Shown piece after piece: positions 16,573 to 26,516 of a stretch of DNA of 64,000 nt (the first letter of the stretch is position 1; each line of letters opens with the position of its first letter). The stretch lies in the sequence record PP410321. One strand, given 5' to 3'. Position numbers and translations under genes: made by a program. The notes under the pieces are model-generated. The model saw only the letters and a program-made list of their open reading frames with translations, was not told the DNA's origin and did no database searches. This stretch comes from Escherichia phage vB_EcoM_CUA3.

Positions 16573-18696
16573 CTACATTTTGAATTTATTTGATAAAGAA
16601 GAGATGTCCAAAGATGCAGCAAGGATTTCCATAGCCTCATTACTTTCTGAAACAGATTCTGAAATTAGGAATTCTTTAAACCCGTTCATCAATTTAACTT
16701 CACCGGTTTCCATCAAATGGTCACCATCGTAAACAGATTCACTGAGCTCTGAAGGAGACGTTACGGTAGCTTCCATAAGGTATTTGTGAGATACTCTATC
16801 GTTCATAGCAAAAGCCGCTACTTTATCAACCTTCAACAACAATCCACGCGGAAGGATAATTTCTGCTTCTTCGGCGTATTCTGTAAGGTCACCAGGAGCG
16901 ATAACTTTAACTGCTTCAGCACCTCTAATAACCATACCAATTTCGGCAATTCTATCTGCAGGACCTTCAGGTGCAATTGGATTACCAAACTCGTCTTCTT
17001 CCCATTCTACCTCTTCGTCATCGACTTCACCCACATCAGATGAACTACCGCTGGTCAATTTAAACAACTCATCAGCAGAGGATAAAGAACCTTCACCACC
17101 AACAAAAACGGCTTGGTTGTCGAGGGCCATATAATTTTTACCGAATTCACCAAAGATGTTAGGCTTTAATGAGGCTGATACAAAGTTCTTAAAGTAAAAT
17201 GTTTTGTTATCGATATTATGACGCAGAATTTTGTATGGCAAATCCTGACCACGATACAAAATAGTACCCTTAGGAAGTTTAATACCCTTAGTAAATGCTG
17301 AGTCTAAATCCTTAATCAATCTAATAGCCGTTGTATTGTTTTCGGATTCAGGTTTACCTAAAAGGAATAAGTTCATAGGAGCATATTCGGCCGCACAATA
17401 TTCAATAATGGCGTTACTTTCGTCTTTAGTCAAGCCCTTAGGTTTAATGAGCTCGCCTGAATAAGCATACGCATCACCAATAGAATCGTTAATCAGTTTA
17501 TAAACGGCTTCCATAGCGAAAGCAATTCGGGATGCTTTCTCTGAAGGAGTACCCTTAAAACGGGTGCTCAGGTTATTAACAATTTTCTTAATAATATCCA
17601 GACTATTGGTTGTATTGATTTGCGAAAGGCCGCTTAAAAGTCTATCGACTTCTGTATTAAAAAATGCCATATTTTTAGAGTAAATTTCAAACCCTTGTTT
17701 ATCTCTATTAGCATAGTTTAGTTTAAATTTACTATCGGTCATTAAAGCGTGCGTAAGAGCAATGGTGTATCTAAAGTTGGCAAGGTCCTCACTCTTAGAT
17801 TTAAACTGAGAGGCCTGACGCATTTTAGTAATAGCACCTTTTTTAAAGTTCTGGCTAATCTGTTCAATACCTTCGTTCTCAGGGCCTTCGGCCGAGTGAA
17901 CAGGGACAGAAGCTTCAAACTCGTTATAAACCTGCAATTCTTTAGGTGATAAAGTTTCAGGTTCAGCAGTAGAATACTGCGCTGCTGCAGCCATACGACG
18001 GGAAATCTTAGTACGAGAAATAACAGCCTTATCGGTACGTTTCTCTTCAACCTGTGCAATAGATGCTGCTACGGCTTCTACCTTACTTACGGCCTGGCCG
18101 GTTTTCTTAGAAACATAAACTTCACCGACTTTAGACTCAACCTTGGTATAAAGGTCCGCATCAATTTCAGGCATACCCTTGATATCTTCGATATTAGTGC
18201 CACGACGTGCTAAAAGAACGTATGTATGTTTACCACTAAACTGGAACATATCATCGACAACTTTAAACTTACCACCGGTACGTGCCATCGCCAAACGAGC
18301 TAATACACGCTGAACGGTAGGACCCTTACCTTTCATTTTCTTGGTAGGGAAACGGAACAGAACTGCGTCCATTTTAAGTTTATTTACTTGTTCATATATT
18401 GTATCGAAAATAGTATTCAATGCGCCAAGTGGGTCTGGACCAAGACCACCTTTGAGTTCAGCCGGAGCACCCTTGCTCGATAAACTCATTAGAATAACGT
18501 GGACATATTTGTCGCCGGGCTTAACCATTTTAATAGCGTCTCCTTGAGACGCATAAGATACCATACGAGCAACCAGGTTATCATTACCTGGTGCTTGGAT
18601 AGAGAAAATCTGTGGGATACCTGAGCCTGGCTTAAGATTTGTTACTGGATAGTTTTTAGCTGAATCACTATCAAAAACTTCGTTTAAATTTTCCAT
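16573..18696 (-). CDS. alt: Alt-like ADP-ribosyltransferase (virion-packaged), copy 1
   Basis: 707 aa; conserved blocks shared with T4 Alt; ART signature R (YRGQ), S-x-S (SAS) and E-x-E (EAEII) in C-terminal third. Confidence 0.8.
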   Translation of the reverse strand: MENLNEVFDSDSAKNYPVTNLKPGSGIPQIFSIQAPGNDNLVARMVSYASQGDAIKMVKPGDKYVHVILMSLSSKGAPAELKGGLGPDPLGALNTIFDTIYEQVNKLKMDAVLFRFPTKKMKGKGPTVQRVLARLAMARTGGKFKVVDDMFQFSGKHTYVLLARRGTNIEDIKGMPEIDADLYTKVESKVGEVYVSKKTGQAVSKVEAVAASIAQVEEKRTDKAVISRTKISRRMAAAAQYSTAEPETLSPKELQVYNEFEASVPVHSAEGPENEGIEQISQNFKKGAITKMRQASQFKSKSEDLANFRYTIALTHALMTDSKFKLNYANRDKQGFEIYSKNMAFFNTEVDRLLSGLSQINTTNSLDIIKKIVNNLSTRFKGTPSEKASRIAFAMEAVYKLINDSIGDAYAYSGELIKPKGLTKDESNAIIEYCAAEYAPMNLFLLGKPESENNTTAIRLIKDLDSAFTKGIKLPKGTILYRGQDLPYKILRHNIDNKTFYFKNFVSASLKPNIFGEFGKNYMALDNQAVFVGGEGSLSSADELFKLTSGSSSDVGEVDDEEVEWEEDEFGNPIAPEGPADRIAEIGMVIRGAEAVKVIAPGDLTEYAEEAEIILPRGLLLKVDKVAAFAMNDRVSHKYLMEATVTSPSELSESVYDGDHLMETGEVKLMNGFKEFLISESVSESNEAMEILAASLDISSLSNKFKM

Positions 18697-18699
18697 TAT

Positions 18700-20784
18700 T
18701 TACCCTTGGATGAATTTTTCTGGGATGTCATAGAGGTCTATGCATGAAGCCAAAAGAGGCAGTACGTCAAACCGTGTAGATTTAACAAATGAATCAAAAG
18801 ATACAGGGCTTTCGGAAGTATCGAAGTCATCTTGATATACAACCAATTCACCGGTTTCCATTAGTACGTCACCATCATACACTACAGATTCTTGAAGCTC
18901 ATCTGTCGTCATAACTTCAGCTTGAATGAGTTTTGTATTNNNNNNNNNNNNNNNNNNNNNNNNNNNNNNNNNNNNNNNNNNNNNNNNNNNNNNNNNNNNN
19001 NNNNNNNNNNNNNNNNNNNNNNNNNNNNNNNNNNNNNNNNNNNNNNNNNNNNNNNNNNNNNNNNNNNNNNNNNNNNNNNNNNNNNNNNNNNNNNNNNNNN
19101 NNNNNNNNNNNNNNNNNNNNNNNNNNNNNNNNNNNNNNNNNNNNNNNNNNNNNNNNNNNNNNNNNNNNNNNNNNNNNNNNNNNNNNNNNNNNNNNNNNNN
19201 NNNNTCTAAAAGACCTACACCGGCATGGGTAACACCAAAACGACCGAAAATAATAGGGGTCAGTGAAGTTGATACAAAGTTTCTAAAATAGAATACTTTA
19301 TTTTTNNNNNNNNNNNNNNNNNNNNNNNNNGTCATACTCTGTGCACGATAAACTGTGATGCCTTCAGGTAATCTATCGCCGTTTTCAAAAGCAGAATCCA
19401 AATTATTAACTGCAGATTCGATATCTTTTTCGCTCATAACTTCATAGTTCTGAGGATTATATCGTCCTAAAAGAAGGTTATTGATATCGNNNNNNNNNNN
19501 NNNNNNNNNNNNNNNNNNNNNNNNNNNNNNNNNNNNNNNNNNNNNNNNNNNNNNNNNNNNNANAGTAATATCAACCATAATACCGCCACCTACACCAGCA
19601 AAACTATAAACACGTTTTTTAATGAACTTGGTCTTAGCGGCTTTCCACTTAGACTCGGTCAATTCGTTCCAGAGGTCGTCAGGTTGACCTTTACGAGTTT
19701 TGTTATGCTTAGCCAGCCATTCGCCTTTATATTCTTCAAAAACTGTATTAATAACAGAGGCATATTTTTCTAGAGCTTTAACAGATGTCAAAGGTTCGTT
19801 TTTGATGGCTGTAAGGATTTTCTCTTTAATTTTCTCTTGGATTTCACCTATACCGTGAAGAGGAAACATTTTATAATCGTAATGCAACTCTTCAGCAGTG
19901 CCTTCAGCTACTATATTAGCAACCTTATTTTTAGCCGCAGGAGAATTGTTATTAGTAACCATTTCTTGGGCATCAGGGATTAATGGAGCTGTTGCCGGTT
20001 TATTAAAATCAGCGGCAGTGGCTTCATATTTCTTAAACAGTTCGCTTTCATTACGATAGGATTCTAAAGACTGGCTTGCCGCAATAGCACGTCGAGAAAT
20101 CTTAGTCTTGGTTATAACCATTTTATCGGTGCGACGTTCTTCAACTTTAGCAATACTGCCGGCAATAGCAGTTTCTTTAGTAACCTGCACGCCTTCTTTT
20201 TTAGAAATATAAACTTCACCGACATCAGAATCTACCTTAGTGTATAATTCGGAATTAATTCCAGGCATACCTTTGATATCTTCGATATCAGCTTGTTTAC
20301 GGACTACCAGGATGTAAGTATGTTTACCGGTAAATTGGTACATAGCCGGAACCACTTTAAAACGTCCACCGGTTTTCTGCGCTACCAAACGTTGGATAAT
20401 ACGTTGAACGATAGGGCCTTGACCTTTCATTTTCTTAGTAGGGAAACGGAACATCACGGCATCCATACGAAGCTTTTTAACTTGTTCGAATACTACGTCG
20501 AAAATGGTATTGATAGCATCAATAGGAGTAGGGCCTAAGCCACCTTTGAGTTCAGCCGGAGAACCTTTAGCTGAAAGGCTCATAAGGATAACGTGGGCGT
20601 ATTTATCACCTAATTTAACCTGTTTAATAGCATCGCCTTCAGAGGCATAAGATACCATACGAGCCACCAGTTGGGATTCGGCATCGCCAATCTTCCAAAT
20701 CTGTGGTACTTTAAGTTTTGGGTTTAAGTTTACAGTAGGCAGGGTGCCTTCAGACTCAAACACCTCATTCAATTGTTCGGTCAT
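18700..20784 (-). CDS. Alt-like ADP-ribosyltransferase, copy 2 (paralog; partly masked)
   Basis: 694 aa; N-terminal 230 aa collinear with copy 1; YRAQ and STS motifs present, E-x-E region masked. Confidence 0.75.
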   Translation of the reverse strand: MTEQLNEVFESEGTLPTVNLNPKLKVPQIWKIGDAESQLVARMVSYASEGDAIKQVKLGDKYAHVILMSLSAKGSPAELKGGLGPTPIDAINTIFDVVFEQVKKLRMDAVMFRFPTKKMKGQGPIVQRIIQRLVAQKTGGRFKVVPAMYQFTGKHTYILVVRKQADIEDIKGMPGINSELYTKVDSDVGEVYISKKEGVQVTKETAIAGSIAKVEERRTDKMVITKTKISRRAIAASQSLESYRNESELFKKYEATAADFNKPATAPLIPDAQEMVTNNNSPAAKNKVANIVAEGTAEELHYDYKMFPLHGIGEIQEKIKEKILTAIKNEPLTSVKALEKYASVINTVFEEYKGEWLAKHNKTRKGQPDDLWNELTESKWKAAKTKFIKKRVYSFAGVGGGIMVDITXXXXXXXXXXXXXXXXXXXXXXXXXDINNLLLGRYNPQNYEVMSEKDIESAVNNLDSAFENGDRLPEGITVYRAQSMXXXXXXXXXKNKVFYFRNFVSTSLTPIIFGRFGVTHAGVGLLXXXXXXXXXXXXXXXXXXXXXXXXXXXXXXXXXXXXXXXXXXXXXXXXXXXXXXXXXXXXXXXXXXXXXXXXXXXXXXXXXXXXXXXXXNTKLIQAEVMTTDELQESVVYDGDVLMETGELVVYQDDFDTSESPVSFDSFVKSTRFDVLPLLASCIDLYDIPEKFIQG

Positions 20785-20820
20785 AATAATTCCTCTTTAA
20801 TAACCGTATTTATGCCATAA

Positions 20821-20836
20821 AAGGCCCGAAGGCCTT
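20821..20836 (-). terminator. UUCG-tetraloop hairpin / terminator after the ligase operon
   Basis: Minus strand AAGGCC-UUCG-GGCCUU followed by TTTTAT. Confidence 0.5.
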
Positions 20837-21005
20837 AAAGTACTAATAATGTACGATATACTTCGAACTTAGGCCCCTTTTCATACCGGTCAAAAGTATC
20901 TTTGAAATCAGCAAAAGCGATTTCATTTTCAAANNNNNNNNNNNNNNNNNNNNNNNNNNNNNNNNNNNNNNNNNNNNNNNNNNNNGTTTCTAAATAAGCT
21001 TTCAT
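20835..21005 (-). CDS. Small hypothetical protein downstream of ligase (middle masked)
   Basis: ATG at 21005 one nt after ligase stop; C-terminal FENEIAFADFKDTFDRYEKGPKFEVYRTLLVL. Confidence 0.35.
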   Translation of the reverse strand: MKAYLEXXXXXXXXXXXXXXXXXXFENEIAFADFKDTFDRYEKGPKFEVYRTLLVL

Positions 21006-21006
21006 A

Positions 21007-22530
21007 TTATAGTCCAGTTTGAGACCAATCACCGAATACATCTTCAAATGAATCGGCTTCTGTTTTATCGAAGCGCCATCCTTTAATAATTATAAGGAAA
21101 ACACCTACAGTATCAGTACGTCCTTTAGAATGGACCCAACCATTACATTCACAATCGGCAATACGTCCAATCAACTTACCTTCACGAGCTTGTTTCATAA
21201 GAAGTTCGCGGTCCATATCAGGACGATCTTCTAAAGGAATTAATACCTTTTTGCCTGCTTTATTTTTCTTATGAGTAGTATCCTTAAAGCCGGAACCACA
21301 GTCGGTTGTAATACGACGACAACGTGATACTAACTCAACACCACCAATCTTATTAGGGTCTTTAGAGTGTTCATAGTAACCTACCACTTCTAAAGCAATA
21401 TCGATTACTTCTTTGAATTTAATAAGGTTTTTAGAACGACGGTTTTCCCAGTAGGAGTCCATGTTCTTAAGGATAATACCTTCCAGATTTTGGTCGATGT
21501 ATTTTTTATAAACGACTTTAGCTTCTTCGAGATTATTAACCCATTGNNNNNNNNNNNNNNNNNNNNNNNNNNNNNNNNNNNNNNNNNNNNNNNNNNNNNN
21601 NNNNNNNNNNNNNNNNNNNNNNNNNNNNNNNNNNNNNNNNNNNNNNNNNNNNNNNNNNNNNNNNNNNNCATCCAATGGAACATAGTCCCATGCCTGCAAT
21701 ACCATACCATCTGCTTCAGCTGGAGTAATGGTTCCTTGGAGGGCTTTATTAGCCAAACCATTTGAAGTAGAACGGTCGGCGACTGTCTGGAATTCCTTGG
21801 CTTTACTTAATTCTGGAAGTTCTTCATCAAACATACTAAACAAATCGTTAGCTGCTTTCGGTTCAACCTTAGGTGTATGGTAAACTAATTCACCATCAAT
21901 CATAACACCATTAGGATGACGCTGACGAGCTTCTTCAGTCATNNNNNNNNNNNNNNNNNNNNNNNNNNTAAGCCCTTGATATTCATTACCACCGCGAGTA
22001 AGGAATGTTACCCCATCGTTACGAACTTCAGCAAAGCAACGAGCACCGTCAGCTTTTAATTGAGCGAACGCTGGCCATTTAATATTTTTCTTAATCAGAG
22101 CTTCGTCATAAGAACTGGCCAACATCTGTGGTTGTTCAGGGATTAAACCTTTCCAAACCTTGTTAGCAATAGAAATCGATGCACCACATTCAAGGTCGCG
22201 CATCATTACACGACGTAATACCTCAGCGTCTGGACCCTTGGCATCGGCAATAATTTGGGCAAGTTCTTCAATAGCAGCATTACCTGTAATCTTACGGGTT
22301 GCTAGTGTGAACTCAGCGAAATCAAGAAGGTCTTCAAGTGTAATCATACCAAAGGACTGAGACGTAAATCCAGGTTCTGGCCACTTTTTAATACCATAGT
22401 TCAGACGACGGGTATAAGCCATACGATAAACACGTTTCAGAAGCTCGTTATCCTTTTCACGAGCAATAATAGCTTCTTTAGCTTTAGTAGAATCAATAGC
22501 AGCAATTTCGTTCAAAATATCTAAAATCAT
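21007..22530 (-). CDS. 30: ATP-dependent DNA ligase
   Basis: 507 aa; adenylation motif KADGAR; collinear with T4 gp30; three short N-masks inside. Confidence 0.9.
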   Translation of the reverse strand: MILDILNEIAAIDSTKAKEAIIAREKDNELLKRVYRMAYTRRLNYGIKKWPEPGFTSQSFGMITLEDLLDFAEFTLATRKITGNAAIEELAQIIADAKGPDAEVLRRVMMRDLECGASISIANKVWKGLIPEQPQMLASSYDEALIKKNIKWPAFAQLKADGARCFAEVRNDGVTFLTRGGNEYQGLXXXXXXXXXMTEEARQRHPNGVMIDGELVYHTPKVEPKAANDLFSMFDEELPELSKAKEFQTVADRSTSNGLANKALQGTITPAEADGMVLQAWDYVPLDXXXXXXXXXXXXXXXXXXXXXXXXXXXXXXXXXXXXXXXXXQWVNNLEEAKVVYKKYIDQNLEGIILKNMDSYWENRRSKNLIKFKEVIDIALEVVGYYEHSKDPNKIGGVELVSRCRRITTDCGSGFKDTTHKKNKAGKKVLIPLEDRPDMDRELLMKQAREGKLIGRIADCECNGWVHSKGRTDTVGVFLIIIKGWRFDKTEADSFEDVFGDWSQTGL

Positions 22531-22791
22531 TTTACCTTCNNNNNNNNNNNNNNNNNNNNNNNNNNNNNNNNNNNNNNNNNNNNNNNNNNNNNNNNNNNNN
22601 NNNNNNNNNNNNNNNNNNNNNNNNNNNNNNNNNNNNNNNNNNNNNNNNNNNNNNNNNNNNNNNNNNNNNNNNNNNNNNNNNNNNNNNNNNNNNNNNNNNN
22701 NNNNNNNNNNNNNNNNNNNNNNNNNNNNNNNNNNNNNNNNNNNNNNNNNNNNNNNNNNNNNNNNNNNNNAATTGTATGAACAACAAACATA

Positions 22792-23430
22792 TTAACCTCG
22801 AGCAATCCATTCAACTGCTGCATTATTACGAAGGGATTCGATGGCTGCGATATCGTCCCATGAATTAACCTTTACGGCTAAATTAGGTTTAAAGTCACGT
22901 TCACCACGAGCTAACCAATAAACTTGGATATCCATGAGAATATTAGATGCGGCATCACAGTGGTGAGCCAAATCATCGACATAAAACTTAATGCGTTTGC
23001 CGTATGTATTTTTAGCTCTTATGAACAGGTCTTCTTTTGATTCTGAATGACCACACATCAGAATCTCCTTGAATGCGCCAGGGAACAAAGCATTCAAATT
23101 GAATTGTCTATTCAGCAGAGCATCAATTGAGTCGCCTAGCGCAGTCACGGCTACAAAATCGAAGTCTTTTTTTAGCTTGTTGATGTGTTTTAATGCGTCC
23201 ATGTAAGGAGACAGATAACGAATAAAATCCGACTGATTATATTTCTCGATTAAACGTGCGCCTAATTCGTCGTCACAATTAAACAGTTCGCCTGGAGATA
23301 AGAAACGTTCGTCCTGAATCATATTCAAAATATGTTCTAAAGGCAAATTATATTTCTGTGCGAAATAAGGCAAGCCGGACTGCCAACTCAAACATACTCC
23401 ATCGATATCTGTTAAGATAACTGGTTTCAT
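22792..23430 (-). CDS. HAD-superfamily phosphatase-like protein (30.1/30.2 position)
   Basis: 212 aa; HAD motif I ILTDIDGV, motif II VAVTA, motif IV YVDD. Confidence 0.6.
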   Translation of the reverse strand: MKPVILTDIDGVCLSWQSGLPYFAQKYNLPLEHILNMIQDERFLSPGELFNCDDELGARLIEKYNQSDFIRYLSPYMDALKHINKLKKDFDFVAVTALGDSIDALLNRQFNLNALFPGAFKEILMCGHSESKEDLFIRAKNTYGKRIKFYVDDLAHHCDAASNILMDIQVYWLARGERDFKPNLAVKVNSWDDIAAIESLRNNAAVEWIARG

Positions 23431-23894
23431 AATAAATCTCTCAATTTGTTTAGGATGTCGATAAACTCTTTTTCAGTTAGTATTGTATCACATTCTTTGA
23501 GGTGGCTTGCCATTGAATGCTTTAAAACCTTACCTTTAGTGGCTTGTAAAGCTTCTCGGAATCCTTTGTTCTGGAGCGCTGCTTCAAAATATGCATTTGT
23601 ATACAACTCTTTCCATGCTGCAGAGTATCTTGAAAAGGGAATTCCAAGCCAGAAAAGCGTCCCACGGTCCGCAGCTCTTGCATAAGCTCTTCCACTTTGC
23701 TGGGCGGCCAATCCGGACATCCTAAATATACGTTTTTGTTGTTCAACATTTTTCACCTTACATCCTTGGAGGAATCCTTCGAGTCCACCAAATTGGATAC
23801 CATCCATAACGAAAGGCCATTTAGCAAAGTTACTTAATGCGCATGATGGCCACGGAAAGTTACTTCTAATTTCTAACTCAGACATCTTTGACAC
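23427..23894 (-). CDS. Hypothetical protein with NADAR/YbiA-like N-terminal motif (30.3 position)
   Basis: 155 aa; LSNFAKWPFVMDGIQF resembles the SNFxxWPxxxDG signature of NADAR proteins; assignment tentative. Confidence 0.45.
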   Translation of the reverse strand: MSKMSELEIRSNFPWPSCALSNFAKWPFVMDGIQFGGLEGFLQGCKVKNVEQQKRIFRMSGLAAQQSGRAYARAADRGTLFWLGIPFSRYSAAWKELYTNAYFEAALQNKGFREALQATKGKVLKHSMASHLKECDTILTEKEFIDILNKLRDLL

Positions 23895-24093
23895 TTATAA
23901 TTTCGACATCAGCCCAATGTCCGTAACCCGGGAGTCGGTCTTCAATGGATAAACCGCCGTCGTGTTTAGGCATTTTAATTGTCATGATATAAGGTTCTAA
24001 ATGGTCTGCCGTATGAGGAGAAACATCGGTCACACGATAAGTCACTTCAACCATTTCCGTACCTAACAATTTCTGAATCAGTTTCTTAACCAT
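23878..24093 (-). CDS. Hypothetical protein
   Basis: 71 aa ORF, tight packing with neighbours. Confidence 0.4.
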   Translation of the reverse strand: MVKKLIQKLLGTEMVEVTYRVTDVSPHTADHLEPYIMTIKMPKHDGGLSIEDRLPGYGHWADVEIISVKDV

Positions 24094-24288
24094 ATTATCC
24101 TCGCTTCAAACATTTGATTACAGACAATTCAGAACCCATGCGAACGTCTTCGGTGCCATCGACCCATAAGACTAAATACGCTTCTTTAATTACAANACNA
24201 CCGAATTTAAAAGCAGGTAGAACCTTGGAAATCATTCCAGGAATACCCACACCTTTTAGCTGAACAGTTTGTGATAAGAATAGTTGCA

Positions 24289-24576
24289 TTAGAACCTCAT
24301 CTGAAAGCCGTGTGATTTAACATTACCACCATAGATGTCAGAGGTATTGACTTCACGAGCAGCACTTGGGTCGATATTGATATCACGGTTGAGCTTAGTG
24401 ATTGCCAGGGTATCACGACCATTAACAGTACGAAATTCTACTGGACAAACCACATCAGCATAAGCCTTAATAGATTCACGAGTAGGCTGTTTGTCGGCAG
24501 GAACGTCTTTACCTGCTTTAGAGAAAACAACTTCACAGAAATTTTTACGAGTATCGAAATAAGTGGTCATAAACAT
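24289..24576 (-). CDS. Hypothetical protein
   Basis: 95 aa ORF; adjacent 64 aa ORF 24095-24289 carries ambiguous bases. Confidence 0.4.
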   Translation of the reverse strand: MFMTTYFDTRKNFCEVVFSKAGKDVPADKQPTRESIKAYADVVCPVEFRTVNGRDTLAITKLNRDINIDPSAAREVNTSDIYGGNVKSHGFQMRF

Positions 24577-24689
24577 AATATTTTNNCCTCANNNNNNNNN
24601 NNGTCTATAGTATCACGCCTACCGGAGATGTACACCCTTTTTTAAAGATTTAGAAACAAAAATGGGACTCCGAAGAGTCCCATAACTTA

Positions 24690-24849
24690 TGCNNGANCTT
24701 TACCAAAGCAAGCAGCATCTGCACGCAATACTGCGCGAGCACGAGCTTGAAGCTTATCAACTAACGGATTGATACGCTTGTTGGACGCACGCTTGTAACC
24801 AGCGCGTTTAGAGGTACCGTCAACTACTTTAACTTCTTTCTTAGCCATG
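24690..24849 (-). CDS. Small basic hypothetical protein (30.9 position), 3' end in ambiguous bases
   Basis: MAKKEVKVVDGTSKRAGYKRASNKRINPLVDKLQARARAVLRADAACFGK, RBS AGAGATATA..ATG weak; not in ORF track. Confidence 0.3.
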
Positions 24850-25115
24850 TTNTATATCTCTTAAATTAGGATGCAGGACTTATTGACATTGCCTGCGCAA
24901 GCCCTCAAGGGGAACATAGGTTTAGGATATTTAACGACAGGATAACCATAAACCTCGTCATCATANNNNNNNNNNNNNNNNNNNNNNNNNNNNNNNNNNN
25001 NNNNNNNNNNNNNNNNNNNNNNNNNNNNNNNNNNNNNNNNNNNNNNNNNNNNNNNNNNNNNNNNNNNNNNNNNNNNNNNNNNNNNNNNNNNNNNNNNNNN
25101 NNNNNNNNNNNNNAT

Positions 25116-25451
25116 TCAAGAGGTACACCGTAAAANNNNNNNNNNNNNNNNNNNNNNNNGATTCGTAAATCGATAATCAGACAATTCGACGGCTCCTCGA
25201 TTTAACTTAAGGGTAATAATAAAATGACGTACTGCTTTACGAGCTGCAGAAGCCAGAGGCTTAGCATATTTCAGTTCATCTTTAGCTTCCAGTTCAGTAG
25301 CCAGAACAGCCTGAGCAGGATTCAGATGTTTGAAATAACGCAGGATTTCCAGTGCTTCGGCTTCAACATCAATAGATGCGCCGTAGTTTTCGTGACCGTT
25401 GTTCCAAGCGTTGCGTTGCAGTTCAAGAGCGTGATTCAGATGTTTGTTCAT
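25116..25451 (-). CDS. rIII: rIII lysis-inhibition accessory protein (3' end runs into mask)
   Basis: MNKHLNHALELQRNAWNNGHENYGASIDVEAEALEILRYFKHLNPAQAVLA... matches T4 rIII. Confidence 0.8.
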   Translation of the reverse strand: MNKHLNHALELQRNAWNNGHENYGASIDVEAEALEILRYFKHLNPAQAVLATELEAKDELKYAKPLASAARKAVRHFIITLKLNRGAVELSDYRFTNXXXXXXXXXLRCTS

Positions 25452-25597
25452 TTTAGATTCTCAATTCGAGATAAAGATTGGTGGACACGTTCTTCTGAAT
25501 TTCACTTCCTTTCGGCAAGTCTCTCAGTTGTAGTCCACCGCTTAGGATTATCNNNNNNNNNNNNNNNNNNNNNAGCCAATCCATATTATTATTTATA

Positions 25598-25921
25598 TCA
25601 CTTATAAAGACACGGAATAGCTTTATAGTGACAGGTAACGAATTTTTGTTTAATTTCTTTAGGCTGCTTAATACCGAGCGCAACTAAAGGATGAGGCACG
25701 TTAGCAATCTTACCAACAGGAAGTGGAGTCAAATCACCTACTTCACAAAAACCTTCAGGGACATCAGGTCCTACAGAATAAATTTCACAAAGTTCAGGGA
25801 TTTCACCTTGATGAAGTTTGCCAATAACGATACCAGATGCAGTAGTTTCTTCATCACCAGCTTGTTTTGGTTCGGAAACGAGAATAACATATTCTCCGAC
25901 CGCTTTAATAGGAAGTTCCAT
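25598..25921 (-). CDS. 31: gp31 co-chaperonin (GroES analogue)
   Basis: 107 aa; C-terminal [23 protein letters not shown] as in T4 gp31. Confidence 0.85.
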
Positions 25922-25952
25922 ATTTAATCCATGTTGTTTTGTTGATAGATTA

Positions 25953-25977
25953 ATAATAACACGCTATTCTTAAAGCA
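25953..25977 (-). promoter_or_regulatory. MotA-dependent middle promoter for gene 31
   Basis: Minus strand TATGCTTTAAg + 12 nt + TATTAT, 30 nt upstream of gene 31 ATG. Confidence 0.5.
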
Positions 25978-25979
25978 TA

Positions 25980-26246
25980 TTACAGGACAAGCAGAGTTTC
26001 AGTCTGGAGCCCGTTAATAGAAATCAGTTTATCGAAACGGAACGAGCGCCAGTCATTAACCTTGGTGTCAAATACACGGATATAATTAACCGGTTCTTTA
26101 TTAGCTTCCGGGCCTGGTGCTTGAATTTCTTTATACGGGAGAAGGTCTAGGTCGCGAGTACAAGTCATACGACGAACGCTACCATCCGCCTTTTCAAACA
26201 GAACTTCGTGAGTACCCCACAGACAGAATAGTCTTGGCTTTTTCAC
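25980..26246 (-). CDS. Hypothetical protein (31.1 position)
   Basis: 88 aa ORF. Confidence 0.45.
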   Translation of the reverse strand: MKKPRLFCLWGTHEVLFEKADGSVRRMTCTRDLDLLPYKEIQAPGPEANKEPVNYIRVFDTKVNDWRSFRFDKLISINGLQTETLLVL

Positions 26247-26282
26247 GGAGCCTAATAGTTTCTTGTTCAGTTAAAATCATAA

Positions 26283-26516
26283 TTATTCCAGAATAGTTTT
26301 AATAGTGGTTGCATTACGCTCTTTTAGAGCTCTTAATAGGCTATGGCAATTATCAAGAATAGGTACTGTTTTGTAATTCATGTTGGCATAAACCCACTCG
26401 GATTTATAGTACGATTTCCATCGAGAGAAAAAGTACTTTTTGTATTCTACCGAATAGGCTACTAAACTTTCACCTTTTGAGTTCAGACCTGAAAACTTCA
26501 CTAATCGAAATTTCAT
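26283..26516 (-). CDS. Hypothetical protein (31.2 position)
   Basis: 77 aa ORF, start adjacent to cd stop. Confidence 0.45.
   Translation of the reverse strand: MKFRLVKFSGLNSKGESLVAYSVEYKKYFFSRWKSYYKSEWVYANMNYKTVPILDNCHSLLRALKERNATTIKTILE

Follow-up and report, generated by a model that had tools for sequence, protein, structure and literature searches.

A full-length orthologue of T4 gene 30.3 (adfN), predicted to encode an anti-DarT1 NADAR enzyme, in a JS98/JS10-like T-even Escherichia phage

The window (i.e., the whole stretch of 64,000 nucleotides of Escherichia phage vB_EcoM_CUA3, record PP410321, that was analysed) carries an intact orthologue of T4 gene 30.3 (adfN), which very probably acts as an anti-DarT1 ADP-ribosylglycohydrolase, a reading to which we assign a probability of roughly 0.92. 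Orthology, synteny, completeness of the gene, fold and conservation of the catalytic residues are established in this analysis; the activity and the counter-defence role of this particular allele, with its 22 substitutions relative to the T4 protein, would follow by transfer from T4. The function of the gene is already published, and the NADAR/anti-DarT reading, supported as it is, brings no new biology.

A previous reading of this DNA, made from its letters alone (the original prediction), had described a 155-aa product of an ORF at 23427..23894 and had assigned it to the 30.3 position. The assignment holds, in that the order 30 (ligase)/30.1/30.2/30.3/30.4/30.5/30.6/30.9 is identical in the window, in JS10 and in T4. 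The minus-strand ORF exists too, starting from a GTG codon, but translation most likely begins at the ATG at 23885 and yields 152 aa. The features of the locus are the following:

23427..23885 (-): adfN (gene 30.3) coding sequence, 152 aa plus a TGA stop, encoding a predicted phage-type NADAR DNA ADP-ribosylglycohydrolase
23886..23894 (-): in-frame GTG extension (M-S-K), the source of the 155-aa count, probably untranslated
23427..23430 (-): ATGA overlap between the adfN TGA stop and the gene 30.2 ATG, read in the sequence and typical of translational coupling
23878..23885 (-): overlap ATGTCTGA, with the adfN ATG 8 nt inside the end of gene 30.4, read in the sequence
24662..24683 (-): terminator-like hairpin after gene 30.9, from a consensus scan and the sequence, with a 9-bp stem (5 G-C pairs) and a T-run

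The ATG at 23885 is preferred because the annotated orthologues of JS10 and T4 both measure 459 nt (152 aa) and the T4 protein aligns over residues 1-152 with no gaps, and it is further supported by an alignment of 62 family sequences, which begins at or after this codon. Numbering from it also brings the residues into agreement with the published catalytic E36 and K43. The GTG at 23894 was rejected as a start, given that the orthologues begin at the ATG and that the ORF listing simply takes the first ATG, GTG or TTG after a stop. The adfN ORF is free of masked bases (N).

Genes 30.6 to 30 probably form one transcription unit, since the ends of their ORFs abut or overlap, and the hairpin at 24662..24683 marks the upstream limit of this tight block (30.6-30.5-30.4-30.3-30.2-30.1-30). 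The sigma-70 promoter scan of 20500-26500 was uninformative, with 8 sites found versus 13 expected by chance. By eye, a weak, sub-threshold sigma-70-like pair (TGTACA-16 nt-TACTAT, 24595..24640, minus strand) can be seen between the 30.9 terminator and the 30.6 ATG; the DNA just downstream of it is masked, and N also occupies part of the sequence just ahead of 30.6. As a whole, the window carries 71 runs of N (13,527 bases, about 21%), including some near adfN (e.g., 21547-21668, 22540-22769, 24592-24602 and 24966-25113); most of 30.1 is hidden in this way, together with the rIII region, the DNA upstream of 30.6 and parts of the ligase gene (30). Outside this block, gene 31.1 (25980..26246, minus strand, 88 aa) matches the Pfam family WYL_2 (Sm-like SH3 beta-barrel) with E=1e-11, and its T4 counterpart is annotated as an 'SH3 beta-barrel fold-containing protein'.

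At the sequence level, the family assignment is unambiguous with respect to the T4 protein and indirect with respect to NADAR proteins in general. The window protein and T4 gp30.3 have the same length and an identity of 86%, aligning ungapped over 152/152 residues, and the former matches PHROG 652. Of the two Pfam profiles named along with the original prediction, Phage_30_3 (PF08010) was matched with E=5e-65 and 217.9 bits (cut-off 36) over profile positions 2-138 of 138, whereas NADAR (PF08719) gave no match at E<=10, and neither did it for T4 gp30.3. The profile of the YbiA-type domain, TIGR02464, reaches only E=0.036 and 14.3 bits, far under its cut-off of 73.7. A phmmer search against PDB sequences returned YbiA (2b3w) with a non-significant E=0.33, located exactly over the motif LSNFAKWPFVMDGIQFGGLEGFLQGCK, and the profile built from the 62 family sequences returned YbiA alone, with E=0.017. 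When those 62 members were scanned singly with PF08719, 21 reached E<=1, the best with 1.5e-7 and 32.3 bits (cut-off 35.1). The gp30.3 family is thereby a separate Pfam family, whose link to NADAR is real but transitive and below threshold; sequence comparison is suggestive of NADAR membership, at a non-significant level, and structure and relatives are needed to sustain it. The PADLOC search gave no match, with no model fitting the window protein, as expected because that library covers defence proteins and not anti-defence ones.

It is the predicted structure that makes the link. The 62-sequence alignment served as input for an AlphaFold2 model of high confidence (mean pLDDT 94.7, pTM 0.90), which was compared with the PDB by Foldseek. 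The top match was YbiA (2b3w; E=1e-4, TM 0.69), followed within the top three by the Phytophthora NADAR with ADP-ribose (8bau) and the Geobacter lovleyi NADAR/DarG1 (8bat), the remainder being noise. According to this model, the window protein has the NADAR (YbiA) fold, with a helical core flanked by small sheets. The NADAR/YbiA-like resemblance first proposed at the level of a motif is thus borne out, both by these three being the sole matches of the model and by the 21 of the 62 relatives that reach PF08719; the window protein itself lacks a PF08719 match, and its predicted fold is related, not unrelated, to that of YbiA.

The peptide originally quoted as a NADAR signature is found exactly at residues 17-43, counted from the ATG, and it contains both residues known to be catalytic in T4. 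Together with other elements relevant for activity, it maps as follows:

23757..23837 (-): N-terminal NADAR signature LSNFAKWPFVMDGIQFGGLEGFLQGCK, residues 17-43, including E36 and K43, aligning with YbiA residues 29-55
23778..23780 (-): catalytic E36, contacting ADP-ribose, codon GAA (verified), invariant in the 62 relatives
23757..23759 (-): catalytic K43, contacting ADP-ribose, codon AAG (verified), invariant in the 62 relatives
23517..23519 (-): H123, the histidine of phage-type NADARs in the last beta-strand, codon CAT (verified), invariant in the 62 relatives
23433..23474 (-): C-terminal alpha-helix, residues 138-151, intact, a helix in the AlphaFold2 model

Within the signature, L17, S18, N19, F20, F25, E36, G37, F38, Q40 and K43 are invariant across the 62 relatives, in an alignment that reaches down to 36% identity. 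In T4 AdfN, the substitutions E36A and K43A each abolish the function (PMC11257639), and in the Phytophthora NADAR (PnNADAR) the residues contacting ADP-ribose are E43 and K50 (PMC11543638). K43 corresponds to K50 of PnNADAR, and E36 would be the counterpart of its E43 because the E-x6-K spacing is identical. As for the residue of the last strand, it is a Glu in YbiA-type proteins, an Asp in DarG1 (the DarT1-associated type) and a His in phage NADARs (PMC11125620, PMC11543638). The last strand of the model comprises residues 120-122, with H123 at its end, and this residue is taken as the family-distinguishing histidine on the basis of the statements in those papers and of the predicted structure.

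Could this allele be inactive nonetheless, or shifted in its specificity, and so give no protection against the E. coli DarTG1 tested? There are precedents in the adfN of RB69 and in the allele-specific AdfA. In RB69, a frameshift deletes the last 15 residues of AdfN, and this natural inactive allele gives no protection and leaves the phage sensitive to DarTG1 (PMC11257639). Furthermore, 7 of the 22 substitutions that separate the window protein from T4 AdfN fall within the last 30 residues. Against this, the window AdfN is full length (152 aa) and has no frameshift, its C-terminal helix (residues 138-151) is confidently predicted (block-mean pLDDT ~92-98), all 24 invariant positions of the family are kept, and 142 of the 152 positions are conservative with respect to T4, so that the loss or change of function is judged very unlikely.

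Removal of ADP-ribose from the bases of nucleic acids, and with it a defence against DarT-type toxins, was the possible function that the original prediction had suggested for a phage NADAR; experiments with the T4 orthologue (86% identical) have demonstrated it, with the precision that it applies to DarT1 (guanine) and not to DarT2 (thymine). In vitro, T4 gp30.3 is active on guanosine-ADPr and leaves thymidine-ADPr intact (PMC11125620, Toxins 2024). The structures of NADARs were solved, and their guanine de-ADP-ribosylation shown, by Schuller et al. in 2023 (PMC11543638), who credit the NADAR superfamily and its His-bearing phage branch to the bioinformatics of de Souza and Aravind. The DarTG1 resistance of T-even phages was mapped by Johannesman et al. 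to gene 30.3, renamed adfN (bioRxiv 2024, PMC11257639; Nat Commun 2025, PMC11825919), for anti-DarT factor NADAR, which is necessary and sufficient against DarTG1 during T-even infection (PMC11257639, PMC11825919) and acts enzymatically on DNA, without binding DarT1 (PMC11825919). Consistently, T4 mutants with a transposon in adfN disappear on DarTG1 hosts, the gene being essential only when DarTG1 is present and dispensable on E. coli K-12 (bioRxiv 10.1101/2025.11.20.689424).

Transferred to the window phage, these data would give the following picture. Upon infection of a host carrying DarTG1, DarT1 would ADP-ribosylate guanines in the phage DNA and block its replication. AdfN, a minimal, core-only N-glycohydrolase of predicted NADAR fold, would be produced from the early/middle gene block downstream of rIII and would cleave the bond between the N2 of guanine and ADP-ribose, with E36, K43 and the phage-type H123 placed around the distal ribose, thereby restoring replicable DNA. 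It would behave as an orphan antitoxin-like enzyme, neither binding nor blocking the toxin.

The main role of AdfN might, alternatively, be to reverse or tune the ADP-ribosylation for which transferases of the phage itself are responsible, or else to process ADP-ribose linked to RNA, the reversal of DarT1 activity being secondary. Two tandem genes for Alt-like ADP-ribosyltransferases are indeed found 3-7 kb from adfN, but Alt-type enzymes modify arginine in proteins, not guanine, and the proximity of Alt and 30.3 in every T-even genome amounts to conserved gene order and not to specific functional evidence, which is probably all that the distance in the window reflects. RNA G-ADPr is likewise a substrate of all NADAR families in vitro, the T4 protein included (PMC12945103), and DNA may not be the sole substrate of AdfN because of this activity; in the summary table of the same work, the T4 enzyme is absent from the NADARs that reverse cytidine-ADPr (PMC12945103). 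The full effectiveness of AdfN in T-even infections only (PMC11825919) could be read in the same direction, whereas the dispensability of T4 adfN on K-12, and its being essential only with DarTG1 (bioRxiv 10.1101/2025.11.20.689424), argues for the opposite and makes a main role of this kind very unlikely. The Alt-like paralogues themselves (16573..18696 and 18700..20784, both on the minus strand) are 707 and 694 aa long, are 39% identical to each other and each match PF03496; T4 has a single alt gene here, and an 'alta' is annotated in JS10.

E. coli YbiA (2b3w; PF08719, TIGR02464), to which a role in the damage control of riboflavin intermediates is assigned, differs from the window protein in sequence (identity ~20%) and in having its family-defining Glu where the latter has His. 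That the window protein were itself a YbiA-type metabolic N-glycosidase, destroying reactive intermediates of the riboflavin pathway or similar small molecules and not acting on nucleic acids, is extremely improbable in view of the 14.3 bits obtained with TIGR02464 (cut-off 73.7), the replacement of that last-strand Glu by His in all 62 relatives, and the DNA de-ADP-ribosylation activity and DarTG1 phenotype of the T4 orthologue.

Among the known systems, the closest to the window AdfN is T4 gp30.3/AdfN (PF08010; the 'phage NADAR' of Schuller et al. 2023), with which it shares its 152 aa and its slot between 30.2 and 30.4, E36, K43 and the last-strand His, the core-only NADAR fold and the intact C-terminal helix. 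The differences are the 22 substitutions and the phage itself, which is JS98/JS10-like (Dhakavirus) and not a Tequatrovirus. In contrast to DarG1 (the BC4488 family; 8bat, E. coli C7 NADAR), the window gene is an orphan, with 30.2 and 30.4 as neighbours and no adjoining darT or ADP-ribosyltransferase gene, and the protein has His in place of the catalytic Asp and is devoid of the N-terminal helix and sheets that DarG1 has in addition (PMC12945103). Other phage counter-defences against DarTG are AdfA (RB69 gp61.2 type), AdfB (ICP1) and AdfM (PMC11257639, bioRxiv 10.1101/2025.11.20.689424). AdfM (T4 tk.4) is a macrodomain directed against the thymine-ADPr of DarTG2/DarT2, whereas AdfN is a NADAR directed against the guanine-ADPr of DarT1 (bioRxiv 10.1101/2025.11.20.689424).

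The T4 protein also differs from DarG1 in that it cannot substitute for it as an antitoxin, i.e., uninfected E. coli are not rescued from DarT1 by T4 AdfN (PMC11125620, PMC11825919), and it barely helps non-T-even phages, its full effect being seen only in T-even infection (PMC11825919). Some T-even-specific requirement therefore seems to exist, which is not due to DNA modification and for which an extra T-even protein has been suggested (PMC11825919). Might that missing partner be encoded by a gene translationally coupled to adfN? In the window, the leading candidate would be the neighbouring gene:

22792..23430 (-): gene 30.2, 212 aa, phrog_420, its ATG overlapping the adfN stop (ATGA)

Besides the ATGA coupling, gp30.2 co-occurs with adfN in 22/82 fetched loci, and some of its features weakly resemble those of a hydrolase. 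Seven homologues have invariant D8xD10G, T96, K132/K140 and D152D153, resembling the four motifs of HAD phosphatases, and weak matches to 5'(3')-deoxyribonucleotidases were obtained by phmmer (2jao, E=0.19) and, as the only one in a Pfam scan at E<=10, with PF06941 (NT5C, E=0.1). At E<=0.01, the Pfam scan of gp30.2 gave no match, a search of the PDB with the 7-sequence profile returned no match, and the single-sequence AlphaFold2 model was of low confidence (pLDDT 37.5), so that gp30.2 as a HAD hydrolase is a weak lead, drawn from sequence motifs. If it were the partner, gp30.2 might make the substrate accessible to AdfN or clear away the ADP-ribose that is released. The proposal is a long shot, given HAD matches of just E=0.1-0.2 and the rescue of RB69 by ectopic AdfN alone, although RB69 may provide its own 30.2. 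The T4 and L007 versions of gp30.2 have an extra C-terminal tail of ~60-65 aa, from which the window gp30.2 differs by having none.

Regarding the phage that bears adfN, the 2 kb around the gene share ~94% identity with JS10, JS98, Bp7 and related Escherichia phages, and JS10 is classified within Straboviridae, Tevenvirinae, Dhakavirus, which identifies the window phage as a JS98/JS10-like (Dhakavirus) T-even phage. In the comparison of 22792..23885, the gp30.2 protein is 100% identical to those of JS98 and JS10; for the adjoining AdfN, the best identity among the fetched viral contigs is 95%, and that to the nearest protein-cluster representatives is 91-92%. This difference between the two neighbouring proteins suggests local mosaicism, with a junction that separates 30.2 from 30.3.

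Inside adfN, there is also an ORF in the +1 frame (23522..23749, minus strand, 75 aa), with the position and length of the 30.3' annotated in T4, to which it is 60% identical. As a functional overlapping gene, 30.3' was rejected: a stop interrupts the JS10 and JS98 versions, and the ATG is not conserved. No sign of selection on it was seen either: synonymous shuffling yields an open run of this length in 20% of the shuffles for the window and in 8.5% for T4. Furthermore, between the window and T4 the overlap has no reduction in synonymous differences (23/65 codons versus 25/65), and the reading of 30.3' as a selected overlapping gene is unsupported by these comparisons.

AdfN is a clear example of how a phage can take an antitoxin-like enzyme to reverse a chemical attack on its DNA. 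The activity and the role of the family were shown experimentally between 2023 and 2025, the bioinformatic link to NADAR being earlier. With its adfN intact, this JS98/JS10-like phage should resist DarTG1-type defence, which would be useful when choosing phages against hosts that carry DarTG1.
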